In this document: one piece after another, positions 1,500 through 42,568 of the stretch
How the letters are laid out: each line of letters begins with the position of its first letter
How positions within the stretch are numbered: the first letter of the stretch is position 1
From: Corallococcus exiguus
GTDB lineage: Bacteria > Myxococcota > Myxococcia > Myxococcales > Myxococcaceae
Direction: 5' to 3' (one strand)
Length of the DNA stretch: 64,000 nucleotides
Assembly (NCBI RefSeq): GCF_017302975.1
Contig: NZ_JAFIMT010000003.1
The notes under the pieces: model-generated
What the model was told of the DNA's origin: nothing
The model's input: the letters and a program-made list of their open reading frames with translations, nothing else
Database searches by the model: none
Translations under genes and position numbers: made by a program

Positions 1500-3029
1500 G
1501 TGCGAACCGGATTGAAGCGGTGGTGGGAGCTGGGCCAGGTGGCCCGTGCCTCCACGCGTCTGCGGCGGGCGTCCCGGCCCCAGGACGCGGAGCTCGCGCG
1601 ACACGAGTTGGCCCAGCGCCTGTTGGGACTTCGCGGGCTGCCCCAGAAGGTGGGCCAGGTGCTCACGCTCGCGGAGCTGGGCGCGGACACGCCGGGGTTC
1701 GGTTCGCTCGCGGAGGCGCCCTCCCCGCTCGACCCGGAGGCCGCGCTGGCGGAGGTGTCCCGCCGGTTGGGCCGTCCGTGGCGGGAGGTGTTCAAGTCGC
1801 TGGAGGGCACGGGCATCGCCGCGTCGCTGGGCCAGGTGCACCGGGGCGTGCTGCATGACGGGCGCACCGTGGCCGTGAAGCTGCGGCACCCGGGCATCGC
1901 GGAGGCCGTGAAGGATGATCTGCGCGCGCTGGGGTGGCTGGCCGCTCCGTTGGGAGGCTGGCGCGGGAAGCTGGACCTGTCCGCCTACCGCCACGAGCTG
2001 GCCCGCATGCTCCAGGGTGAGTTGGACTATCGCCACGAGGCCCAGGCGCTGCAGGACGCGGGCACTCGCATGGCGGAAGTGCCAGGCGTCATCATCCCCG
2101 TGCCGGTGGATGAGATCACTCGGGAAGACCTGTTGGTGATGACGTGGGTGGAGGGCACGTCGCTCGCGGATGGCTGGCGCGGGAGCGAAGCGGACCGCCG
2201 CGCGCTGTCCACGACGCTGGTGCGGCTGTTCCTCCACGGCTGCTTCACGTGGGGCGCGCTCCACGCGGATCCGCACCCGGGCAACTACCGCGTGTCGCGG
2301 GGAGCGGACGGCAAGCCCGTGCTGGGAGTGCTCGACTTCGGCTGCGTGAAGCCGCTGCAGCCGGAGCTGCCCGTGGGGCTGGCGCGGTTGATTTCACTCC
2401 TCAAGTGTCCGAGCACTCCACCGTGCCCGGAGCAGCTCCTGTCCGCGTGGGTGATGCTGGGCTTCGCGCCGGAGTTGCTGGAGCCCATGGCGGAGGCGCT
2501 GCCCGCCGTCAGCCGCGTGCTGCTGGAGCCCTTCCTGCTGGACCGTCCCTTCGACGCGCGAAGCTGGCGGCTGGGCGAGCGGCTCACCGAAGCACTGGGG
2601 CCACACCGCTGGAACTTCCGCGCGGCGGGGCCCGCGTCGCTCCTGTTCGTCCTGCGCGCGTTCCACGGGCTGGTGCGCCACCTGGACGTGCTGGATGCGC
2701 CCATCGCCTGGGGACCGCTCCTGGATGAGGCCCGCGCCCCTTCGCTGCCACCTCCGCCTTCGCCGCAGGCGGCTCCCGTGGAGGGCACCGCGCGCTACCT
2801 GAAGGTCCAGGTGACGGAAGGAGGGCGCACGCGCGTCGCGCTGACCTTCCGCGCGGACGTGACTGCGCACCTGGAGGACCTGCTGCCGGAGGACCTGCCT
2901 CGCAAGCTTGCCGCTCGGGGCGTGGATCCGGCGGCCATTGGTATCGCGGCGGTCGCGGCGGGTCTGCGGCCGTCGGAGTTGTTCCACCTGGACGAGGGCC
3001 GCCGGCGTGTCCGGGTCTGGCTCGAATGA
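1500..3029 (+). CDS. ABC1/UbiB (AarF) family atypical protein kinase
   Basis: GTG start at 1500 inside a longer ORF that overlaps the MCP. ABC1 kinase hallmarks are present (VAVKLRHPGI, HADPHPGN, LGVLDFG). About 509 aa. Confidence 0.75.
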   Translation: MRTGLKRWWELGQVARASTRLRRASRPQDAELARHELAQRLLGLRGLPQKVGQVLTLAELGADTPGFGSLAEAPSPLDPEAALAEVSRRLGRPWREVFKSLEGTGIAASLGQVHRGVLHDGRTVAVKLRHPGIAEAVKDDLRALGWLAAPLGGWRGKLDLSAYRHELARMLQGELDYRHEAQALQDAGTRMAEVPGVIIPVPVDEITREDLLVMTWVEGTSLADGWRGSEADRRALSTTLVRLFLHGCFTWGALHADPHPGNYRVSRGADGKPVLGVLDFGCVKPLQPELPVGLARLISLLKCPSTPPCPEQLLSAWVMLGFAPELLEPMAEALPAVSRVLLEPFLLDRPFDARSWRLGERLTEALGPHRWNFRAAGPASLLFVLRAFHGLVRHLDVLDAPIAWGPLLDEARAPSLPPPPSPQAAPVEGTARYLKVQVTEGGRTRVALTFRADVTAHLEDLLPEDLPRKLAARGVDPAAIGIAAVAAGLRPSELFHLDEGRRRVRVWLE

Positions 3030-3051
3030 AACACGGACAAGGAGGTGACGG

Positions 3052-3387
3052 ATGGTCACCATCGGCATGAACTACGAAGTGCGTGAGGGCAAGGCGGAAG
3101 CCTTCGAGCGGAAGTTCGCGCTCGTGCTGGAGGCGATGCGCAAGCTGCCGACGCACGCTCACACGGAGCTGTTCAAGAGCGTGGGAGCGCCGGGGCGCTA
3201 CCTCATCGTCTCCGAGTGGCACAGCCGGGAGGGCTTCGACGCCTTCGTCGCGTCCGAGGCCTTCCACCGCGTGACGGACTGGGGCGCCAGCGCCATCCTC
3301 GCGAGCCGGCCGCGCCACGAGGTGTATGGCGAGACGGCCTCCAGTGCCCCCGTGGGCCGCTGCCCGGTCGCGCACGCGGCGCGGTGA
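3052..3387 (+). CDS. Antibiotic-biosynthesis-monooxygenase (ABM) domain protein
   Basis: 111 aa with an ABM-like fold signature (VTIGMNYEVREGKAEAFERKF...VSEWHSREGFDAFVASEAF). Confidence 0.65.
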   Translation: MVTIGMNYEVREGKAEAFERKFALVLEAMRKLPTHAHTELFKSVGAPGRYLIVSEWHSREGFDAFVASEAFHRVTDWGASAILASRPRHEVYGETASSAPVGRCPVAHAAR

Positions 3388-3398
3388 AGCGGGTGCGC

Positions 3399-4463
3399 AT
3401 GAACGCCATCCGGGTCCTCGTGGTCGACGACGCGGCCGTGGTGCGGCGCCAGGTGTCGCTGCTGCTGGGCGCGGCTCCGGGCCTGGAGGTCGTCGCCACC
3501 GCGCCCAACGGCCGCATCGCCCTGGCGAAGGTGGAGCAGTTCCAGCCGGACGTCGTGCTGTTGGACCTGGAGATGCCGGAGCTGGACGGGCTGGAGACGC
3601 TGAAGCTCTTGCGCCAGCGCGCCCCGGAGTTGCCCGTGGTGATGTTCAGCGCGCTCACCGAACGCGCGGGCGTGTTGACCCTGGAGGCGCTCGCGCTGGG
3701 GGCCCGCGACTACGTGACGAAGCCCACGTCCGCGGGCGGGATGAACATCACCGTGGAGGCCGTGCGGGATGAACTGGTGCGCAAGCTCAAGGCGCTGAAC
3801 GTGCGCACGCCGTCCGCCACGCCCTCGCCTCCACTGGTGACGCGCGAGCCGCAGGCCCGGCCGCGAGTGCCCGCGCGGGTGGAGGCCATCGTCGTCGGCG
3901 CATCCACCGGAGGCCCTGGCGCGCTGGTGCGCCTGGTGTCCGCGTTGCCCGCGGACCTGCCGGTGCCGGTGTTCATCGTGCAGCACATGCCGCCCCTCTT
4001 CACCCGGCTACTCGCGGAGCGGTTGCAGGGCGTGACGCCACTCACCGTGCGCGAGGCGATGACGGGCGCATCCGTGAATGCGGGCGAGGTGTGGGTCGCT
4101 CCCGGCGATTTCCACCTGGCCGTGTGCCGGGATGCGACGGGCGTACGGCTGCTCACGCACCAGGGGCCCGCGGAGAACGCGTGCCGTCCGGCGGTGGACC
4201 TGCTCTTCCGCTCCGCGGCGGAGGTGTACGGCGCGGGGGTGCTGGCGGTGGTGCTCACCGGCATGGGCCAGGACGGGCTGCGCGGCTGCCGGCGGGTGAA
4301 CGAGGCAGGCGGTCAGGTGGTGGTGCAGGACCAGGCCAGCTGCGTCGTCGGCAGCATGCCGGGTGCGGTGGAACAGGCGGGGCTCGCGGATGCCGTGGTG
4401 CCCCTGGAGGCGCTGGCCCTGGAGCTGGCGCGGCGCGTGGATGCGCGCGGACGGAGGACTTGA
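3399..4463 (+). CDS. cheB: Chemotaxis response regulator protein-glutamate methylesterase CheB
   Basis: N-terminal receiver domain (VLVVDDAAVVRR...DLEMPELDG) followed by the CheB methylesterase domain (GASTGGPGAL, VQHMPPLFT, GMGQDG). ATG at 3399 follows the upstream stop at 3387. Confidence 0.9.
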   Translation: MNAIRVLVVDDAAVVRRQVSLLLGAAPGLEVVATAPNGRIALAKVEQFQPDVVLLDLEMPELDGLETLKLLRQRAPELPVVMFSALTERAGVLTLEALALGARDYVTKPTSAGGMNITVEAVRDELVRKLKALNVRTPSATPSPPLVTREPQARPRVPARVEAIVVGASTGGPGALVRLVSALPADLPVPVFIVQHMPPLFTRLLAERLQGVTPLTVREAMTGASVNAGEVWVAPGDFHLAVCRDATGVRLLTHQGPAENACRPAVDLLFRSAAEVYGAGVLAVVLTGMGQDGLRGCRRVNEAGGQVVVQDQASCVVGSMPGAVEQAGLADAVVPLEALALELARRVDARGRRT

Positions 4464-4465
4464 AC

Positions 4466-5356
4466 ATGTCCCTGCTTCCCGACGACTTCTCATACCTGCG
4501 GCAGCGCGTGCTGCGCCGCTCCGGGCTCGTGCTGGAGGCCGACACGTACGCGCTGGTGGAGACGCGGCTCACGCCCCTCATGCGCGAGGAGCGGCTGCCG
4601 GACCTGTCCTCCCTGGTCTCGCGGTTGCGCTCTCAGCCGGAGGGCAGTCCGCTGCACCAGCGCCTGGCGGAAGCGCTGGCCAACCACGAGACGGCCTTCT
4701 TCCGTGACGCGCCCGTCTTCGAGGCCCTGCGCACCACGGTGCTGCCCACGCTGCTGGCCAGGCGCGTCCGCACGAGGACGCTGCGCATCTGGTGCGCGGC
4801 ATGTGCCTACGGTCAGGAGCCCTACAGCGTCGCGATGACGCTGGCCGAGGCCGGGCTGCTCATCACCGGATGGACGGTGCGAATCCTCGCCACCGACTTC
4901 TCCACCCGCGCGCTCGTGCGCGCCTGCGAGGCCCGCTACGACGCGAAGGAGATCCACCGGGGCCTGACTCCCGAGCTGCGCCAGCGCTACTTCCACCAGG
5001 AGCGCGACGGGTGGCGGCTGAGTGAACAGGTGCGCAAGCCGGTGGAGTTCCGGCCGCTCAACCTGATGGAGGACTTCCCGCTGGAAGCGCCCGTGGATCT
5101 CGTCTTCCTGCGCAACGTGATGATCTACTGGGACGCGCCCACCCGGCGCGCGGTGCTCGCCCGCGTGCGGCGGATGCTGCACGCGGACGGCTACCTGGTG
5201 CTGGGCGCCGCGGAGGCCTCGCCCCTGGTGGAGGACGGCTTCACGCGGCACCTGATTGGACAGACGAGCTGGTACCGCCCCACGCCCGCCGCGTCTGGCG
5301 TCGGCGCGCCCGTGGAGGACGCGCGGCGCTCGGCCCGCTCCGGCGCTACACCTTGA
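4466..5356 (+). CDS. cheR: Chemotaxis protein methyltransferase CheR
   Basis: CheR N-terminal helical domain plus SAM methyltransferase domain (RIWCAACAYGQEPYSVAMTL, LRNVMIYWD). ATG at 4466 is 3 nt after the cheB stop. Confidence 0.9.
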   Translation: MSLLPDDFSYLRQRVLRRSGLVLEADTYALVETRLTPLMREERLPDLSSLVSRLRSQPEGSPLHQRLAEALANHETAFFRDAPVFEALRTTVLPTLLARRVRTRTLRIWCAACAYGQEPYSVAMTLAEAGLLITGWTVRILATDFSTRALVRACEARYDAKEIHRGLTPELRQRYFHQERDGWRLSEQVRKPVEFRPLNLMEDFPLEAPVDLVFLRNVMIYWDAPTRRAVLARVRRMLHADGYLVLGAAEASPLVEDGFTRHLIGQTSWYRPTPAASGVGAPVEDARRSARSGATP

Positions 5357-6266
5357 GGCGGATGGCGCCCGGCAACAGCGTCATGGTGCAGGGCAGCCGG
5401 CCCGGCGTCTCGCCGTCAACGTCCAGGAACACGTCGCCCGTCAGCGACTCCGCATGGATCGTGCGGCAGCGCAGCCGCCGCGTGCCCTTCCAGGTGACGT
5501 GGTCGCCGTTGTAGACGCCCTTGGACTTGAGGACGAAGTCGGACAGGCCGTAGTTGGACCAGATGGTGACGTCGAAGAGGCCGTCGTGCGTCACCGCGTC
5601 GGGCGCCACGAACATGCCGCTGCCGAAGTAGCGGCCGTTGGCCACGGCCACCGCGGTGACGCTCACCGTCTCCGGCTCGCCGCCGTCCACCGTGAGGCGC
5701 ACCTGCTGCTCCTGGTACTTGATGAGGCCCTTCACGGTGCCCCACATGAAGCTCAGGTTGCCGCCCAGCGCCTTGCTGCCCTGGTTCACCTCGCGGGCCA
5801 CCACCGCGCTCACGCCGAACGAGGCGATGTTGGCGAAGAAGCGCGTGGCCGGCTTGCCGTCGTTGTCCGTGAACTCCAGCCGGCCCACGTCGAAGGGCTC
5901 GGTCGTCTCCGTGCGCAGCCGCTCCAGCGCGGACGTCAGCTCCAGGTCCCACCCGAAGGTGCGGCGGAAGTCGCCGCCCGTGCCTCGGGGCAACAGGCCC
6001 AGCGTGGCCCGGGGGTTGATGACCTGTCCGTCGCGGAAGAAGCCGTTGGTGACCTCGTTGAGGGTGCCGTCGCCGCCCACCGCGACGATGCACTCATAGC
6101 CATCATCGATGGCCTGCCGCGCCAGACGCGCCGCATCCATGCCGCCGCTGGTGAAGCCGTACCCGAAGTCACCGAGCACCTTGCCCACCTGCGCGGATAT
6201 CTCCACCCATCGCTTCCCCGTCTGCCCGTTGGCGCTGCGCGGGTTGACCACGAGGAACGTCTTCAT
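5346..6266 (-). CDS. Diacylglycerol-kinase catalytic-domain lipid kinase (YegS/BmrU-like)
   Basis: DAGK_cat motifs are present (VNPRSANGQ, AVGGDGTLNEV, GLLPRGTGGDF). 306 aa. Confidence 0.8.
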   Translation of the reverse strand: MKTFLVVNPRSANGQTGKRWVEISAQVGKVLGDFGYGFTSGGMDAARLARQAIDDGYECIVAVGGDGTLNEVTNGFFRDGQVINPRATLGLLPRGTGGDFRRTFGWDLELTSALERLRTETTEPFDVGRLEFTDNDGKPATRFFANIASFGVSAVVAREVNQGSKALGGNLSFMWGTVKGLIKYQEQQVRLTVDGGEPETVSVTAVAVANGRYFGSGMFVAPDAVTHDGLFDVTIWSNYGLSDFVLKSKGVYNGDHVTWKGTRRLRCRTIHAESLTGDVFLDVDGETPGRLPCTMTLLPGAIRLKV

Positions 6267-35383: not shown

Positions 35384-38300
35384 CTACCGGCGCGCCTTGC
35401 GCGCCGGCTTGCCCCGAGTGGTCTTCTTCGCCGCGGCCTTCTTCGCGGCGGTCTTCTTCCCCGCCGCCTTCTTCGCCGAAGCCTTCTTCGCAGGAGCCTT
35501 CTTCACCGCCGCCTTCTTCGCGGCCGTCTTCTTGCCCGCCGCCTTCTTCGCGGAAGCCTTCTTCGCAGGGGCCTTCTTCGCGGCGGACTTCTTGCCCGCC
35601 GCCTTCTTCGCGGAGGCCTTCTTCGCAGGAGCCTTCTTCACCGCCGCCTTCTTCGCGGCCGTCTTCTTGCCCGCCGCCTTCTTCGCCGGGGCCTTCTTCG
35701 CGGAAGCCTTCTTCACCGGCTCCGCCGAACCCTCCGGCGCCTCGCGGGCGTCGCCGCCCTCCTTGGCCCGGTCGAACTCGCGCATCGCGTCGTCCACGAG
35801 ACCCATGCTCATGTACGCGACGCCCAGGTCGTGGTGGTCCGCCGGGGACAGGCCTTCCTTGGTGCCCTCGCGCAGCTTGTTGAGGGCTTCCTCCACCATC
35901 GGATCCGCGGCCTGGGGCGCCTGCGAAGCCTCTTCGGCTTCAATCTCGCCCTTCAGCTCCTGGCCCAGGTTCACCGCTTCGTCCTTCGGTGCCTGCGGCT
36001 CGGCGGCGACCTTGACCTGCACGCTCTCAGGCACCTGGGCGCTCTCGGGCGCGGGGGACTCGGACGCTTCAGGGGCTTCGGACTCGGTGCTGCCCGGCAA
36101 CGGCGACGGCGTCTCGGACATGGGGGGCTCCGGGGCGATGCGCTGGAGGTGATCCTGCAGCTTGACCGTGCGCTCCTGGAGCTCCGCCACCCGGGCCTTG
36201 TCCTTCTCCACCACGTCCGGCGGAGCACGGGCCACGAAGTTCGGGTTGTCCAGCTTGCGCTGCAAACCGGCGAGTTCCTGCTCGGAGCGGACGATCTCCT
36301 TCTTCAGGCGGTCGCGCTCCGCGTCCAGGTCCACCAGGCCCGCCAGGGGCACGTAGATCTCCAGGTTGCCGCTCACGAACGCCGCCGCCTGCGGAGGCTT
36401 GGCGCCCGGGGGGCCCACCACCACCTCGGACAGGCCCGCGAGCGGCATCAGGTACGCGCGCCACCGCTCCAACAGCTCGCGCGTCGTCGCGTCCGGGCTC
36501 TGCACCACCGCCTTCACCTTGGCGGACGGCGGCAGGTTGCTCTCGCCGCGCAGCGTGCGCAGGCCCTCGATGGCCGCGATGACCGGCGCCATCTCGCCTT
36601 CCGCGGCCGCGTCCACCCACGCCGCCTCCGGCTCCGGGTACGCCGCGATGCAGATGCTCTCCGTGGGCCGGGACATCGGCAGCTTCTGCCAGATCTCCTC
36701 GGTGATGAACGGCATGAACGGGTGCATCAGCCGCAGGATGCGGTCCAGGCACGTCACCAGCACCGCGCGCGTGGTGTCCTTGGCCTCCGCGTCCTCGCCG
36801 TACAGCGAGCCCTTCGCCAGCTCGATGTACCAGTCGCAGAACTCCGCCCACAGGAACTGGTACAGCGTGGACGCGGCCTCCGCGAAGCCGAACGCCTCCA
36901 GCGACGCGCGCGTCTCCTCGGTGGCCTTCTGCAGCCGGGAGAGGATCCACCGGTCCGCCAGCGTCAGCTTGCGGCCTTCCAGCGGCGTCTTGTCCAGGTT
37001 GAAGTCGCCCATGTTCATCAGGGCGAAGCGGCTGGCGTTCCACAGCTTGTTGCAGAACGCCTTGTAGCCACCCAGGCGGTCCATCGACAGCTTGATGTCA
37101 CGGCCCTGCTGCGTGAGCGACGCCAGCGTGAAGCGCAGCGCGTCCGCGCCGTGCGCGGGCATGCCCTGCGGGAAGCGGTTGCGCAGCGACGGCTGCAGCG
37201 ACTCCGCCTTCGCGCCGAGGATGACGTCCAGGGGATCGATGACGTTCCCCTTCGTCTTGGACATCTTCTCGCCCTTCTCGTCGCGCACCATCGCGTGCAG
37301 GTACACGGTGCGGAAGGGCACGTCGTTCATGAAGTGCAGGCCCATCATCATCATCCGGGCGACCCAGAAGAAGATGATGTCGTGGCCCGTCTCCATCACG
37401 GACGTCGGGTAGAAGGTCTGGAGGTCCGCCGTCTGCTTCGGCCAGCCCAGCGTGGAGAACGGCCACAGCGCGGACGAGAACCAGGTGTCCAGCACGTCCG
37501 GATCCTGCGTCAGCTCCTTGCCGCCGCACTTCGGGCAGGACTCCGGCGCCGTGCGCGACACGATGACGTCCGCCGTGTCCTTGGAGCGCTCCTCCGCCGG
37601 GGTGCACGCAGCGCAGTACCACGCCGGAATCTGGTGGCCCCACCACAGCTGGCGGCTCACGCACCAGTCGTGGATGTTGTTCATCCAGTGGAAGTACGTG
37701 TTCGTCCACGACTCGGGGACGAACTTGGTGCGGCCCTCCTCCACGGCCTGGATGGCCGGCTTCGCCAGCGGTTCAATCTTGATGAACCACTGCGGCGACA
37801 GGCGCGGCTCCACCACCGTGGTGCAGCGCTGGCAGGTGCCCACGTTCAGCTTGTGCGGCTCCTCCTTCTCCAACAGGCCCAGCTCCGTCAGGTCCGCCAG
37901 CACCTGCTTGCGCGCCTCCCGGCTCTCCAGGCCCGCGTACTTGCCGGTGTCCTTCGTCATCCGCGCCGCTTCGTCCAGGATGGACAGCATCGGCAGCTTG
38001 TGGCGCAGGCCCGTCTGGTAGTCGTTGAAGTCGTGCGCGGGCGTGACCTTCACCACGCCGGTGCCGAACTCCATGTTCACCAGCTCGCCGTCCGCGATGA
38101 CCGGAATCTCACGGTCGGTGAGCGGCAGCGCCACGCTCTTGCCGATGAGGTCCTGGTAGCGAGGGTCCTCCGGATGCACGGCGACGGCCGTGTCGCCCAG
38201 CAGCGTCTCCGGGCGTGTCGTCGCCACGGTGAGGAAGCGCTCCGTGCCCTTCACCGGGTAGCGGATGTGCCAGAGCGAGCCGTTCTTCTCCTCGTGCTCC

Positions 38301-38881
38301 ACTTCCAGGTCGGAGAGGGCCGTGCGGCAGGACGGGCACCAGTTGATCAGCTTCTGGGCCCGGTACATCAGGCCCTCTTCGTACAGCCGGACGAACACCT
38401 CGCGCACCGCGGCCGAGGACTGCTCGTCCATGGTGAAGCGCTCGCGGCTCCAGTCCAGGGACGCGCCCAGGTAGCGGTGCTGCTCACCGATGCGCGCGCC
38501 GAACTTGCCCTTCCACGTCCAGACGCGCTCGAGGAACGCCTCGCGGCCCAGGTCGTGGCGGCTCTTGCCCTCCGTCTTCTTGAGCTCCTTCTCCACCACC
38601 ATCTGCGTAGCGATGCCCGCGTGGTCCGTGCCCGGCAGCCAGAGCGCGTTGAAGCCGCTCATCCGCTTCCAGCGCGTGAGGATGTCCTGGATGGTCGCGG
38701 TGAGCGCGTGGCCGATGTGCAGGCTGCCCGTCACGTTGGGCGGCGGCAGCACGATGCTGAACGGCGGCTTGGAGGAAGGGGCTTCGGCGCGGAAGTAGTC
38801 GCGCTCCAGCCAGTGGTTGTACCACCGCGCCTCCACTTCGGAGGGCTCGTAGGCCTTGGACAGTTCAGTCGTGTCAGTCAT
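35384..38881 (-). CDS. valS: Valyl-tRNA synthetase with ~280-aa C-terminal Lys/Ala-rich histone-H1-like extension
   Basis: Class I aaRS motifs HIGH (SLHIGHAL) and KMSKS, a ValS editing domain, and a C-terminal coiled coil. Then a Glu/Pro/Ser acidic linker and about 12 AKKA(A/P)GKK repeats. 1165 aa. Confidence 0.9.
35397..35700. repeat. Tandem ~36-45 bp coding repeats (gccttcttcgc[gc]g...) encoding the AKKA tail
   Basis: Seen directly as reiterated cgccttcttcgcggaagccttcttcgcagg units. Confidence 0.8.
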
Positions 38882-38934
38882 TGCAAGCGGCCGGCCCCCG
38901 ACGGGGCCGGCGGGGAATCAGAGGGGACTGCGAA

Positions 38935-40197
38935 TCAATGCTGGGTCTCGCGGTCCTTGATGAGCCGCTCCAGCTCTTCCCGGATGATGGTCTCCGCCAG
39001 CTGCGGTACGACCTCCCAGGCAATCTTCTCGATGACCTCGCGGGACGCCTTCGACAGCGCCTCGCGCAGCAGGGCCTCGCCGCCATCCGCGGCCGGACGG
39101 GCGCGCGCGGGCGGAGTCGCCGGCGAGGGACCGCCGATGTCCAGGGAGATCTCCTCCGCGCCGGAGGGCTCGGGCAGCGAGTCCTCGATGCGGATGCTCT
39201 CCGTGCGGGCCTGCGCGGCGGGAGGGGCGGCCGGTGCACCCAGCCCGAACGGATCCCGGGCACGGGCGGCCGGAGGCACCGCGGCGGGCGGGGGCGCGGA
39301 CGGCAGCGGCGCGGCGCCCGGAGGACGCGGGAAGCCGCCCGGGATGTTCGGGGCGCCAGGGCCCGGAGGACGCGCGGCCATGCCCGGAGGCGGCGCACCC
39401 GGAGGACGCGCGCCCGGCGGCACGGCACCCGGCGGAGGACGCGCACCCGGCGGCATGGCGCCCGGAGGCGGCGCACCTGGAGGACGCGCACCCATGCCCG
39501 GAGGCGGCGCACCCGGAGGAGGACGTGCACCCGGCGGCATGGCGCCCGGAGGCGGCGCACCCGGAGGACGCGCACCCGGAGGAACAGCGCCCGGCAGCGG
39601 ACGCGCCGCGCCCGGAGGAGGCGGAACACCGGCGCCCGGAGGACGCGCGCCCGGCGGCACGGCACCCGGCGGAGGACGCGCACCCGGCGGCACGGCACCC
39701 GGAGGCGGTGCACCCGCGGGACGCGCACCCGGCGGCACGGCGGCGGCGGGCGGCGGGCTGACCGGAGCGCTCGGGGCGGAGGTCTGGGGCAGCACGCGCG
39801 TCGCGGCGGACGCGGGCATCGTGTTGGACTTCTGGCCCACCAGCGCCTTCACCTTGTCGAGGAGGATCTGGCTCTCGAAGGGCTTGGTGATGTGGTCATC
39901 CGCCCGGGCGGCCTTCGCGCGGTTCTCGTCGAACGCCTCGAAGGTTCCGGCCAGCAGCAGCACCGGGATGGCCTGCGTGGAGGGGTCGCTCTTGAGCGCC
40001 TCGCAGACCTCGTAGCCGCTCTTGCCCGGCATCATCACGTCGGCGAGCACCACGTCCGGACGCAGCTCGCGCGTGCGGGAGATGGCGTCCAGCCCGTTGT
40101 CCACCGCGGTCACCTGGAAGTCTTCCGTCGCGAAGATCATCCCGATCACCTTGCGGATGGTGAGCGAGTCGTCGGCGATCAGTAGATTCTTGGGCAT
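38935..40197 (-). CDS. RomR-like response regulator (receiver + Pro-rich linker + acidic C-terminal domain)
   Basis: Receiver domain (LLIADDS...DVVLADVMMPGKSG...KPF), roughly 170 aa of PPGARPPGA repeats, and a conserved Glu-rich C-terminus. ATG at 40197 (MPKNLLIADDS). This architecture matches M. xanthus RomR as recalled. Confidence 0.6.
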   Translation of the reverse strand: MPKNLLIADDSLTIRKVIGMIFATEDFQVTAVDNGLDAISRTRELRPDVVLADVMMPGKSGYEVCEALKSDPSTQAIPVLLLAGTFEAFDENRAKAARADDHITKPFESQILLDKVKALVGQKSNTMPASAATRVLPQTSAPSAPVSPPPAAAVPPGARPAGAPPPGAVPPGARPPPGAVPPGARPPGAGVPPPPGAARPLPGAVPPGARPPGAPPPGAMPPGARPPPGAPPPGMGARPPGAPPPGAMPPGARPPPGAVPPGARPPGAPPPGMAARPPGPGAPNIPGGFPRPPGAAPLPSAPPPAAVPPAARARDPFGLGAPAAPPAAQARTESIRIEDSLPEPSGAEEISLDIGGPSPATPPARARPAADGGEALLREALSKASREVIEKIAWEVVPQLAETIIREELERLIKDRETQH

Positions 40198-40314
40198 CGG
40201 CTCCGGCCTCGGGGGGCGCATACCCCCCTGAATTCGTTTGAGATTTCGGGCGAGCAAGCCTGCCTGCACGCCCTGTGTCAATCGGAGAAGCTTAGGATTC
40301 GCGCTTTGGGCCGA

Positions 40315-41181
40315 TCAAGAAAACATGCGCTGCAGGTCCAGTAACATCACCGGATCCGGCAGCCCCGGCGCCCGGAACGTTCCGGGAAGCTCGGCCGGCT
40401 TGAACTTCTGCAGCACACCAAGCACCCGGGTGGCCGCCAGCCCCACGTTCCGCCCCGCCAGTTCCGTGAGGACGAACAGCTCCTCCGCCTGGGCCGGCGC
40501 ACCCAGCAGCGCTGGAATCGAACAGATGGGCCACAGCGCCTGCGCGTGGGGATAGACGCCCGCCACCGGCCCGCTCTGCACCGGGAGCACGCTGAACGCC
40601 TCGCCCCGGGGCACCACCTGGGAGACGCAACCCAGGGGGACGCCGAACAGCACCCCCTGGGACTCCAGCACCAGCGCCCGCTCTGGAGGCTCGTCCGCGT
40701 AGTGCACGGGCCGGGGCTCCGGCGGGGTCGCCCGGGGGCCCGCCCGGTGCGGCAGCGCCTCCACGATGAGCTCCAGGTACAGCCGGTCCTTGTGCAGCAC
40801 CGCGCCCCGGCTCAGCGGCGCCAGCGAGTCCGCCAGGCCCGGCGGCAGCAGGAAGAACGGGTCCCTCGCGACGTCCGCGACCTCCACCACGGCGCGCACC
40901 CGCACCGCGAGCGTGGGGCTGACATCCAGGACCACCACCATGCCCGGCACTTCCTCAGGCAGGCCGCCGAGCAGCGCGGCGAGGTCCTTCACTTCCAGTA
41001 CGCCGCGCAGACTCGCTCCGCGAGCGCCCGGCATCGCGACCTCGATGACGGACGTGGCCTCTACCGCGTAGCGCGTCTCTCCGGCCTCCACCAGCAGGCA
41101 GAGCCGCCGTCCGCTTTCAAAGGGCACGGCCCGGGACCCTAGCAGCCTTCCAGCGTTGGGTGCTAAGCCCTGAACAGTCAT
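40315..41181 (-). CDS. Tandem CheW-like domain protein (start uncertain)
   Basis: Two CheW-like segments (RRLCLLVEAGETRYAVEATSVIEV... and ALVLESQGVLFGVPLGCVSQVV...). The possible ATG at 41181 would overlap the divergent start at 41180, so the real start may be internal. Confidence 0.4.
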   Translation of the reverse strand: MTVQGLAPNAGRLLGSRAVPFESGRRLCLLVEAGETRYAVEATSVIEVAMPGARGASLRGVLEVKDLAALLGGLPEEVPGMVVVLDVSPTLAVRVRAVVEVADVARDPFFLLPPGLADSLAPLSRGAVLHKDRLYLELIVEALPHRAGPRATPPEPRPVHYADEPPERALVLESQGVLFGVPLGCVSQVVPRGEAFSVLPVQSGPVAGVYPHAQALWPICSIPALLGAPAQAEELFVLTELAGRNVGLAATRVLGVLQKFKPAELPGTFRAPGLPDPVMLLDLQRMFS

Positions 41182-42568
41182 GGCGCGACTGCTCCTCGTC
41201 GACGACGAAAAGATCGCCCGCAATCTCTACGGCGACTACCTCACGGCCGCGGGACACCTGGTCACGGCGGTGCCCACCGTGGCGGATGCGAAGGCCGCCC
41301 TCTCCGCGGCGCGTTTCGACGCGGTGGTGACGGACCTCATCCTCCCCGGCGGCGACGGCATGGAGGTGCTTCGCCACGTGCGCGAGCGCTACCCCGGCGT
41401 GGAGGTGCTGGTCATCACCGGCCTGGACAAGGTGGCCCCCGCGGTGCGCGCCATCAAGAGCGGCGCGGCGGAGTACCTGGTCAAGCCCGTGGCGCCGGAG
41501 GCCCTGGAGCACGCGCTGCGCCGCGCGCTCACCACGCGCGACCTGATGCGTGAGAACGCGTCCCTGCGCCAGCACGTCGCGCTGCTGGAGGCGGGCCAGC
41601 GCATCGCCACCACGCTCGACCGCGAGCGGCTGTCCACGGCCGCGTCGGACGCGCTGGAGTCCATGGCCAACGCCTCCGCGGTGATGCTCCTGGAGCGGGA
41701 CCCCGGCGGCACGGGCTTCCGCTCGCACGGCATGCGCGGGCTGCCGGTGGACCTGCACGAGGCGCTCGTCCCTCAACTCATCGAGCGGCTTTCGGGCACG
41801 CGCACGCCGGTGGAGCTCGACGGACTTCAAGTTCCCTGGCCGCGCACCCTCTCCTTCCCCGCCGTGGACGGAGAACTGGTGCTGGGCCACGCGGTGCTCT
41901 TCCACGACAGCGCGCCCGCGGAGCACCACGCGGAGACGGTGGGCTTCCTCGTGCGCAACTGGGCGCTGGCGCTGCGCAACCTGGGCCGCTTCGCCGCCGT
42001 GGAGGACCTGGCCTACGTCGACGACCTCACCCGCCTGTTCAACACGCGCTACCTGCACCTGGTGCTGGACCGCGAGGTGAACGAGGCCCTGCAGACGGAG
42101 CGCCCCTTCTCCCTGCTGTTCCTGGACCTGGACCGCTTCAAGGCCATCAACGACACGCACGGGCACCTGGTGGGCTCGCGGGTGCTGGTGGAGGCCGCGC
42201 GCGTGCTCAAGGGTTGCGTGCGCGACCCGGACGTGGTGGCGCGCTTCGGCGGCGACGAGTACGTGGTGCTCCTGCGCGGCACGGACTCCGGCGGGGCCCT
42301 CAAGGTCGCCGAGCGCATCCGCCGCACCATGGAGACCCATCAGTTCCTGGGCCGCGAGGGGCTGGCCCTCAAGCTCACCACCTGCATCGGCGTGGCCAGC
42401 TTCCCGGAGCATGCCCAGGACAAGGACCACCTGCTGGACCTGTCCGACCGGGCCATGTACCGGGGCAAGCGTGGCACCCGGAACGTCGTCTACATGGCGG
42501 CGCAGGACCTGGAAGCCACCCCGGCCGAGCGCCGTCAGAATCCCCCGCCCCCGCAGGGCCAGGGCTGA
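41180..42568 (+). CDS. Response-regulator receiver / GAF-like / GGDEF diguanylate cyclase
   Basis: MARLLLVDDE receiver domain. GGDEF domain with RFGGDEYVVLL and an RxxD I-site-like region upstream. 462 aa. Confidence 0.85.
   Translation: MARLLLVDDEKIARNLYGDYLTAAGHLVTAVPTVADAKAALSAARFDAVVTDLILPGGDGMEVLRHVRERYPGVEVLVITGLDKVAPAVRAIKSGAAEYLVKPVAPEALEHALRRALTTRDLMRENASLRQHVALLEAGQRIATTLDRERLSTAASDALESMANASAVMLLERDPGGTGFRSHGMRGLPVDLHEALVPQLIERLSGTRTPVELDGLQVPWPRTLSFPAVDGELVLGHAVLFHDSAPAEHHAETVGFLVRNWALALRNLGRFAAVEDLAYVDDLTRLFNTRYLHLVLDREVNEALQTERPFSLLFLDLDRFKAINDTHGHLVGSRVLVEAARVLKGCVRDPDVVARFGGDEYVVLLRGTDSGGALKVAERIRRTMETHQFLGREGLALKLTTCIGVASFPEHAQDKDHLLDLSDRAMYRGKRGTRNVVYMAAQDLEATPAERRQNPPPPQGQG

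Follow-up and report, generated by a model that had tools for sequence, protein, structure and literature searches.

Where aminoacyl-tRNA synthetases carry lysine-rich, nucleic-acid-binding appendages, these are commonly described as an innovation of eukaryotes. The lysine-rich domains of yeast valyl-tRNA synthetase (ValRS) and GlnRS, and those of higher-eukaryote synthetases, provide auxiliary, non-specific tRNA binding in cis (PMC3306390, PMC6213541). Basic tails resembling histone H1 are known from bacterial proteins that include mycobacterial and Streptomyces HupB, actinobacterial TopA, Mycobacterium smegmatis Ku with its PAKKA repeats, Pseudomonas AlgP and PhaF, and chlamydial Hc2. Those that have been characterised bind polyanions, and do so with no strict sequence specificity: the lysine repeats of TopA make its complex with DNA more stable (PMC5714199), AlgP is associated with polyphosphate granules (PMC9239181), the PAKKA repeats of Ku modulate how it binds DNA (PMC3553676), and the disordered KPAA-repeat region of PhaF is a direct RNA binder that activates translation (PMC12818456). 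Here we analyse a 64,000-nucleotide (nt) stretch of Corallococcus exiguus DNA (contig NZ_JAFIMT010000003.1; hereafter the window) in which valS, the gene for ValRS, runs on for 250 codons past the end of the canonical enzyme and encodes an acidic linker, a helical module and a tail of lysine/alanine (K/A) repeats. This architecture joins two known kinds, the H1-like tails of bacterial nucleic-acid enzymes and the lysine-rich synthetase appendages, and a literature search found no description or functional study of the myxobacterial ValRS extension.

Our analysis supports, with a probability of roughly 0.6, a model in which the extension stems from a small gene between valS and nadC, and in which its tail would serve as an accessory polyanion-binding arm that captures tRNA or other RNA or holds ValRS near nucleic acid. 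The protein to which it is attached is a class Ia valyl-tRNA synthetase. Its HIGH signature lies at residues 55-58 and its KMSKS-type signature, KMSKT, at 539-543, with H55, G57, H58, K539, M540 and K542 invariant across 73 homologues. Pfam places tRNA-synt_1 at residues 20-599 (E 1.3e-150), Anticodon_1 at 643-792 and Val_tRNA-synt_C at 851-915, and the families for editing (PF13603), anticodon binding (PF08264) and the coiled-coil arm (PF10458) are all matched. The protein scores above the cutoffs of the NCBIfam models NF011492, NF004349 and TIGR00422, the last at 1137 bits against a cutoff of 612. NF011492 (PRK14900), the long-form ValRS equivalog of 1044 positions, is matched at 1831.1 bits (cutoff 1783), with residues 1-1109 on profile positions 3-1020, and so reaches through the linker and module into the start of the K-rich tail. 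Thermus thermophilus ValRS (1GAX, 862 residues) aligns to residues 6-915 (E 1.7e-240), its residue 861 pairing with residue 915. As 1GAX and the Pfam arm both stop there, residue 915 is the canonical end and residues 916-1165, encoded by the last 750 nt of valS (window positions 35387-36136), are the extension. The original prediction for this locus had set the end of the coiled coil near residue 880 and had given the extension about 280 residues. Both figures give way to those above, and its central claim, an in-frame fusion of ValS to an H1/AlgP-like AKKA-repeat tail encoded by tandem repeats, is borne out.

The fused gene is one continuous open reading frame (ORF). From its ATG start the frame is unbroken, with neither a stop nor a frameshift ahead of the tail in the ORF list or in the nucleotide sequence, and the product is 100% identical to NCBI WP_206883538.1 (valine--tRNA ligase, Corallococcus exiguus). 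GC content at third codon positions (GC3) in the annotated frame is 0.97 in the core, 0.89 in the linker and module, and 0.92 in the tail. The same in-frame junction recurs in 17 independent Corallococcus alleles and in 80 species loci. An assembly or annotation artefact, in which a missed stop or frameshift hides a tail that is a separate ORF in this genome, therefore has a vanishingly small probability, even though the tail is separate in some relatives and error-rich assemblies do yield false splits; for the window itself, the unbroken frame and the identical NCBI protein exclude it. A separate tail ORF, which the original prediction had named as its own possible undoing, is thus false for the window and true in some relatives, where the tail is its own gene.

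The extension is a charge diblock (Table 1). Net charge is -22 in the acidic part and +46 in the basic part (38% K, 37% A), and a six-frame scan for at least 10 K per 40-residue window finds no other K-rich stretch in the 64 kb. AlphaFold2 prediction of the full-length protein with 73 homologues returns a confident body and predicted local distance difference test (pLDDT) values below 50 at residues 920-992 and 1043-1165. Values for the linker and tail are 30-45, with the K/A repeats at about 30, and helices at 994-1041 reach 60-87. Modelled alone, the module yields four helices, the last two of which (pLDDT about 95) form one hairpin resembling a tetratricopeptide repeat (TPR). The linker and the K/A tail are predicted to be disordered and the module to be helical with a single TPR-like hairpin. 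The short helical segment noticed earlier does exist, but it belongs to a strongly conserved module of about 75-88 residues (956-1043).

The tail proper consists of 20 pentapeptides of the form [AVG]KK[AT]x rather than the roughly 12 copies of an AKKA(A/P)GKKT/S decapeptide first proposed, and the proposed H1-like composition is confirmed by a Pfam HC2 match that spans residues 1057-1162. At the DNA level, Tandem Repeats Finder reports over positions 35423-35718 a period of 15 with 19.7 copies (76% matches, score 291) and a period of 75 with 3.9 copies (85% matches, score 360). Tandem DNA repeats are therefore real, but in place of the perfect 36-45-bp units expected there are 15-nt units that match at 76%. 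The longest exact repeat in the array is 71 nt, with an offset of 135 nt or nine units, and the remaining exact repeats are of 27 nt or less; a repeat search finds a single family in the 15-nt register within the pentapeptide array. In the tail as a whole (residues 1044-1165), 42 of the 122 codons are AAG. Terminator-like matches on the plus strand at 35428-35659 are by-products of the repeat, antisense to the coding region.

The slippage that the original prediction expected of such an array is seen between strains. Across 17 Corallococcus alleles the protein varies from 1150 to 1170 residues, the tail from 111 to 128 residues and the number of KK units from 17 to 21. The array indels fall mostly in its N-terminal half and mainly in multiples of five residues, and the linker has one 6-residue indel among the same alleles. 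The valS alleles of Myxococcus xanthus encode 1274-1306 residues. Strains differ in length because 15-nt units are added to or lost from the array, one at a time or several together.

The extension is typical of the Myxococcaceae ValRS lineage. One genome per GTDB species was scanned with a module-based pattern, Y[ML]xMGLVDD, so that loci were found by their module, and 80 of the 104 confirmed loci were analysed. All 80 are from Myxococcaceae/Archangiaceae and all have the module which, partial or error-ridden contigs aside, lies in a ValS ORF of about 1040-1390 residues and is followed by a tail with 23-53% K. An extension of at least 100 residues is present in 95 of the 120 closest ValS clusters (1036-1332 residues), and the comparison of valS lengths proposed earlier returns nearly all close homologues as long forms (1040-1332 residues). 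The long-ValS genera are Corallococcus, Myxococcus, Pyxidicoccus, Citreicoccus, Hyalangium, Stigmatella, Melittangium, Archangium and Aggregicoccus, together with many metagenome-assembled genomes (MAGs). Nearly all homologues end in RR, KR, RK or KK. Such a tail had been considered unusual for a synthetase and potentially novel; being family-wide in the sampled Myxococcaceae/Archangiaceae it is, as the original prediction itself had allowed, a lineage-typical trait. The sequence is also already public, correctly named and covered by the curated model NF011492. One record, BNCN01000007.1 (L020), titled Comamonas sp. KCTC 72670, holds a Myxococcus-type long valS with an open frame of 1363 residues and the tail end RAKPKARAKTRR, and looks mislabelled or contaminated.

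Conservation along the protein is uneven. Over 66 long homologues, identity to the query averages 0.76 in the core, 0.66 in the coiled coil and 0.72 in the TPR-like hairpin, with 0.23 in the acidic linker (39% gaps) and 0.40 in the K/A repeats (31% gaps). In its degree of conservation the module comes close to the catalytic core. Across homologues the median charge of the basic block is +43 and its K content 31%, and the tail keeps its composition and charge rather than its sequence, as functional disordered polycations typically do. In a clade of Melittangium, Archangium and relatives the module has been lost and the acidic and K/A parts have been kept. A functionless low-complexity expansion, in which a repeat driven by slippage would have drifted to the 3' end of valS and be no more than tolerated there, would be in keeping with repeat number and sequence that vary by strain, with a recent exact 71-nt duplication and with the loss of the tail in some lineages. 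It is nevertheless very improbable, given that at least 80 species retain a median 31% K, a strongly positive charge and a C-terminal dipeptide that is basic, despite complete sequence turnover, that the adjoining module is as conserved as the core, and that GC3 and codon usage fit a translated frame.

The evidence for a separate gene comes from relatives in which the same gene neighbourhood holds valS in a fused, a split or a tail-less state. The order GGDEF response regulator, CheW, response regulator, valS, nadC and phosphodiesterase is kept across all three states (L081, L087, L089, L091). The extension is absent from the uncultured relatives L081, L089 and L091, where valS encodes 918-934 residues, with a core about 70% identical, and nadC lies directly next to it. 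In the split state, represented by two loci that are 91% identical at the nucleotide level (L087 and L088), valS encodes 918 residues and ends ...LSRI-TGA. The stop is followed by ACT GGA GGA ACG ATG, in which twelve nucleotides containing GGAGGA lead up to a small ORF of 136 codons (5755-6180 in each), and nadC comes next. The encoded acidic/basic protein begins MSERTPEE..., turns Gly/Met-rich and continues into a K-rich stretch and an Arg-rich tail. Its ATG is homologous to an ATG inside the window gene, with the same frame and spacing, and the 918-residue ValS of this split lineage (P0118) is present on 21 contigs. Low-level read-through of the TGA in these two loci would recreate the fusion. 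A second split case, on a 24.7-kb contig, has a 925-residue ValS (P0093), then a 172-residue protein made up of the module and a K/A tail (P0160), then nadC. The two parts of the window protein are separate adjacent genes in relatives and the junction is homologous, as expected of a gene fusion; judged by sequence comparison, the extension is the product of a unit able to exist as a separate gene. Within the short/split clade, one protein (P0087) retains a degenerate remnant of the extension, ...EQYELGVSYLGG....

Several further candidates for a stand-alone tail gene were rejected. P0141 is a ValS fragment at a contig end, L084 and L086 lie on contigs that are too short or odd and are not used as evidence, and L085, with an ATGA overlap in a different frame that may reflect a 1-nt sequencing error, is treated as a weak split case. 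The 115-residue stand-alone tail P0413 (L092) is false, as its valS is frameshifted at 2400-5350 (GCA_964268505.1, CAXWKM010000007.1). The L092 record is a 6.1-Mb MAG contig from an error-rich assembly that mimics gene fission. A homology search with P0160, whose word index was swamped by low-complexity words, gave only seven matches, one of which was this P0413/L092 artefact. Separately, a metagenome contig (L083, 1824-2852) has a 342-residue ORF composed of the module and an R/K/P-rich tail with a repeated GTGKTLPLPPSPLLK motif. It sits between a Pro-rich response regulator and nadC, and the valS core is missing there.

A trace of the separate gene may persist at the junction of the fused gene. 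In the window, the codons that follow the coiled coil read ATC GCC CCG GAG CCC CCC ATG TCC GAG, and a GGAG-N6-ATG exactly five codons past the coiled coil is found in 44 of the 79 scoreable species loci. The two x residues of the encoded P-E-x-x-M vary freely (PP, PS, PA, AA, TA, DD, KT and others). The first G of the GGAG comes from the junction Pro codon, for which 48 of 49 cases use CCG; in the rest of these genes the share of CCG is 62%. Neither count is corrected for phylogeny. This suggests that the element is a vestigial or still-used ribosome-binding site and start codon of a formerly or alternatively separate tail gene. With GGAG-N6-ATG kept at the junction, fusion or fission needs just a stop-codon change, and the junction thus points to gene fusion, or to easy fission.

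The same observations bear on a less favoured explanation, in which the acidic/TPR-like/basic protein would work in its own right, for instance in association with the nucleoid or with RNA, and its attachment to ValRS would be a tolerated read-through of co-transcribed neighbours that affects ValRS little. Some lineages would make it in free form, and in fused lineages it may also be made free from the candidate internal start. Separate tail ORFs in relatives, the L083 ORF that joins module and basic tail beside nadC without a valS core, a Shine-Dalgarno-spacer-ATG kept inside a linker otherwise 23% identical, and the viability of tail-less lineages all speak for such an incidental fusion. Against it, all 80 sampled species genomes have the fusion, those of the class that lacks the internal ATG among them, which suggests that the fusion itself is maintained, and some of the stand-alone ORFs are contig-end or error-rich-assembly artefacts. 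We regard this explanation as possible and well short of even odds. Still more speculative, and in our estimate unlikely, is a combined scheme in which Myxococcaceae valS would be a Rosetta-stone fusion that goes on acting as two genes: the internal GGAG-N6-ATG would drive synthesis of a free acidic/TPR-like/H1-like protein of about 27 kDa beside the tethered form, the module would dock to ValRS or to itself, and through the tail the charging of valine would be coupled to nucleic acid associated with the nucleoid, ribosomes or polyphosphate. If true, the free and tethered tail protein would be a bacterial counterpart of eukaryotic synthetase scaffolds.

Returning to our preferred model of an accessory polyanion-binding arm, the extension would derive from a small gene located between valS and nadC, which in one uncultured sister lineage may be separate still, or again. 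The K/A tail would act as a sequence-independent polyanion-binding arm, by analogy with the tails of HupB, TopA, Ku, AlgP and PhaF. It would most plausibly raise the local capture and retention of tRNA or other RNA, as do the appendages of eukaryotic ValRS, GlnRS, LysRS and AspRS, and it may hold ValRS close to nucleic acid associated with the nucleoid or the ribosome. Intramolecular masking or tuning of the basic tail is the probable part of the acidic block, and the TPR-like module, as modelled, might offer a surface for protein docking or self-association. Given that related lineages lack the extension, it would be accessory and not essential for aminoacylation.

A number of observations weigh against this model. 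Characterised bacterial H1-like tails mostly bind DNA or polyphosphate, not tRNA, and for that reason tRNA capture is proposed by analogy with eukaryotes. In the core tree, a midpoint-rooted neighbour-joining tree with no outgroup and with short deep nodes, the short and split forms nest among fused ones and the deepest branches are fused, a topology that leans towards secondary fission and loss rather than fusion. About 30 Archangium-like loci run RIAPVEVKIAPP straight into the module, without the Met and the acidic linker; the acidic block and internal ATG are therefore not universal. The conservation of P-E-x-x-M could come from protein rather than RNA constraint. The acidic and basic charges do co-vary across homologues (Spearman rho -0.63), but the value is not phylogeny-corrected and its points are not independent.

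Another explanation, which we consider a tentative alternative, is that the tail would mainly anchor ValRS, whether to the nucleoid or to granules of polyphosphate, perhaps in starvation, development or sporulation, and would leave tRNA binding and catalysis unaffected. In composition the tail comes closest to HupB, phasins and AlgP-like proteins, which are associated with DNA or with granules (PMC9239181, PMC5714199), and the basic block has a net charge of +46. In cyanobacteria an inserted domain relocalises ValRS, so the enzyme can tolerate localisation modules (PMC4893482). This CAAD domain is a lineage-specific addition that alters the location of the enzyme and not its catalysis (PMC4893482). 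It is a transmembrane insertion unrelated in sequence, whereas the Myxococcaceae tail is a soluble polycation. The evidence for tethering fits DNA, polyphosphate and RNA ligands alike, however, and the tail-less and split relatives, which indicate a dispensable function, are compatible both with tethering and with the RNA-capturing arm that we favour.

The tail resembles described proteins in composition. Searched alone, the K/A tail has its best database matches in actinobacterial HupB tails, PhaF-like phasins and proteins with SWIB- or DksA-type domains (PF02201, PF01258), matches that are compositional and silent on ancestry. Pfam HC2 (PF07382) scores 38.5 bits with the whole protein against a cutoff of 40 and 41.4 bits with the C-terminal 285 residues alone, and the NCBIfam models NF038053 (47-52 bits, cutoff 80) and NF038052 (32-35 bits, cutoff 135) fall short. 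Since the whole-protein thresholds of the Hc2 family are not reached, the H1-like resemblance is one of composition only. A search of the extension against the PDB by sequence gave only weak low-complexity matches, to the N-terminal region of Streptomyces SigA and to eL14. What the tail shares with the H1-like tails of HupB, TopA, Ku, AlgP, PhaF and Hc2 is composition, pentapeptide-type repeats, disorder and basicity; it differs in sitting on an aminoacyl-tRNA synthetase, behind an acidic block and a TPR-like module. Within the myxobacteria themselves, CarD carries a basic C-terminal domain of HMGA or H1 type, adjoined by an acidic stretch, though on an RNA-polymerase-binding transcription factor. 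PMC8156234, citing Garcia-Heras et al. 2009, states that the basic disordered H1 region of the M. xanthus protein suffices for function. In Hc2, according to PMC2848022, the number of pentamers is polymorphic between strains, as in the Corallococcus valS tail. The eukaryotic appendages (yeast ValRS and GlnRS, LysRS, AspRS) are alike in being K-rich, largely disordered and missing from ordinary bacterial homologues. They have no tandem AKKA repeats, acidic block or TPR-like module and are of independent origin, and those of yeast ValRS and human LysRS are N-terminal, unlike the C-terminal myxobacterial tail.

The module has a more specific relationship to known proteins. Pfam TPR_2 matches it below threshold (E 0.059; 14 bits, cutoff 27), and it has a single hairpin as opposed to the three or more 34-residue repeats usual in TPR proteins. 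A Foldseek search of the module against the PDB gave nothing significant, the best E value being 0.98 for 30-residue superpositions on TPR hairpins (root mean square deviation 0.4). Searched as a profile against 1.84 billion representatives, it retrieves C-terminal fragments of ValS first and multi-TPR proteins next. By hhalign it aligns over 74 columns, with a probability of 97.5%, to a 1130-residue multi-TPR protein (P0200; aligned segment ...FDLASELRDEL...HYNLGVAYKEMGLLDDAIEEF), and the C-terminal 285 residues of ValRS match the NCBIfam SgmX model (E 2.5e-9). On the strength of the hhalign and SgmX matches, the module is a derivative of a common deltaproteobacterial helix-plus-TPR unit. Its profile similarity to large deltaproteobacterial TPR proteins (the SgmX family, P0200) is real, but the window module is one hairpin, not an array. 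NF011492, for its part, includes the window protein and only names it, leaving the function of the extension unassigned, and the orthologues are listed by NCBI as valine--tRNA ligase.

What is new here are the tail-less uncultured relatives and one lineage in which the tail is a separate gene of 136 codons. A whole bacterial family, the socially developing Myxococcaceae, bears a lysine-rich appendage on an essential synthetase, and its fused, split and absent states in one gene neighbourhood provide a comparative system for candidate roles of the tail in tRNA capture, in nucleoid or polyphosphate tethering and in condensate formation. With its conserved ribosome-binding site and ATG, the junction offers a clean test case both for fusion or fission through one change of a stop codon and for internal initiation, should it occur; this junction and the fused/split/absent series are the most useful leads. 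For annotation, long valS genes are correct and no frameshift artefact, and their length polymorphism comes from the gain and loss of 15-nt units.

Table 1. Features of the valS locus in the window (aa, amino acids; all on the minus strand).
Feature	Position	Strand	Basis or remark
valS coding sequence	35384-38881	-	1165 aa + stop; TAG at 35384-35386; ORF list, Pfam, NCBIfam
ValRS catalytic/editing/anticodon-binding body, aa 1-850	36332-38881	-	Pfam; AlphaFold2 pLDDT mostly 80-97; 1GAX match
C-terminal coiled-coil tRNA-binding arm, aa 851-915	36137-36331	-	PF10458; AlphaFold2 helices 852-878, 888-915
GGAG (36128-36131), 6 nt, ATG (36119-36121); P-E-x-x-M	36119-36131	-	five codons past coiled coil
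Acidic Pro/Glu/Ser-rich linker, predicted disordered, aa 916-955	36017-36136	-	pLDDT, low identity, charge
Conserved module, predicted helical, aa 956-1043 (V-K-V-A-x-x...)	35753-36016	-	alignment, AlphaFold2, hhalign
Short spacer, aa 1044-1055	35717-35752	-	
Twenty tandem pentapeptides [AVG]KK[AT]x, aa 1056-1155	35417-35716	-	15-nt units, Tandem Repeats Finder, Pfam HC2
Recent internal duplication	35481-35686	-	exact 71-nt copies 35616-35686 and 35481-35551
Conserved basic C-terminal end, aa 1156-1165	35387-35416	-	identical among Corallococcus alleles
nadC (quinolinate phosphoribosyltransferase)	34496-35374	-	QRPTase_N, QRPTase_C; GTG start 9 nt past valS stop
Response regulator, upstream neighbour	38935-40281	-	Pfam Response_reg
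CheW-like protein, upstream neighbour	40315-41223	-	Pfam CheW

The conserved gene neighbourhood in which valS is found is unusual for a housekeeping synthetase gene. Opposite valS and nadC, a plus-strand ORF of 1812 codons (34577-40015) is a typical spurious frame of a 69% GC genome, and no Pfam match was found in the part examined (38881-40185). About 1.4 kb downstream of nadC, a minus-strand ORF at 30843-33119 encodes a 758-residue protein resembling major vault protein, with Vault, Vault_2, Vault_3, Vault_4 and shoulder domains (E 9e-45 to 3e-6) and a long, coiled-coil-like, E/R/A-rich C-terminus.

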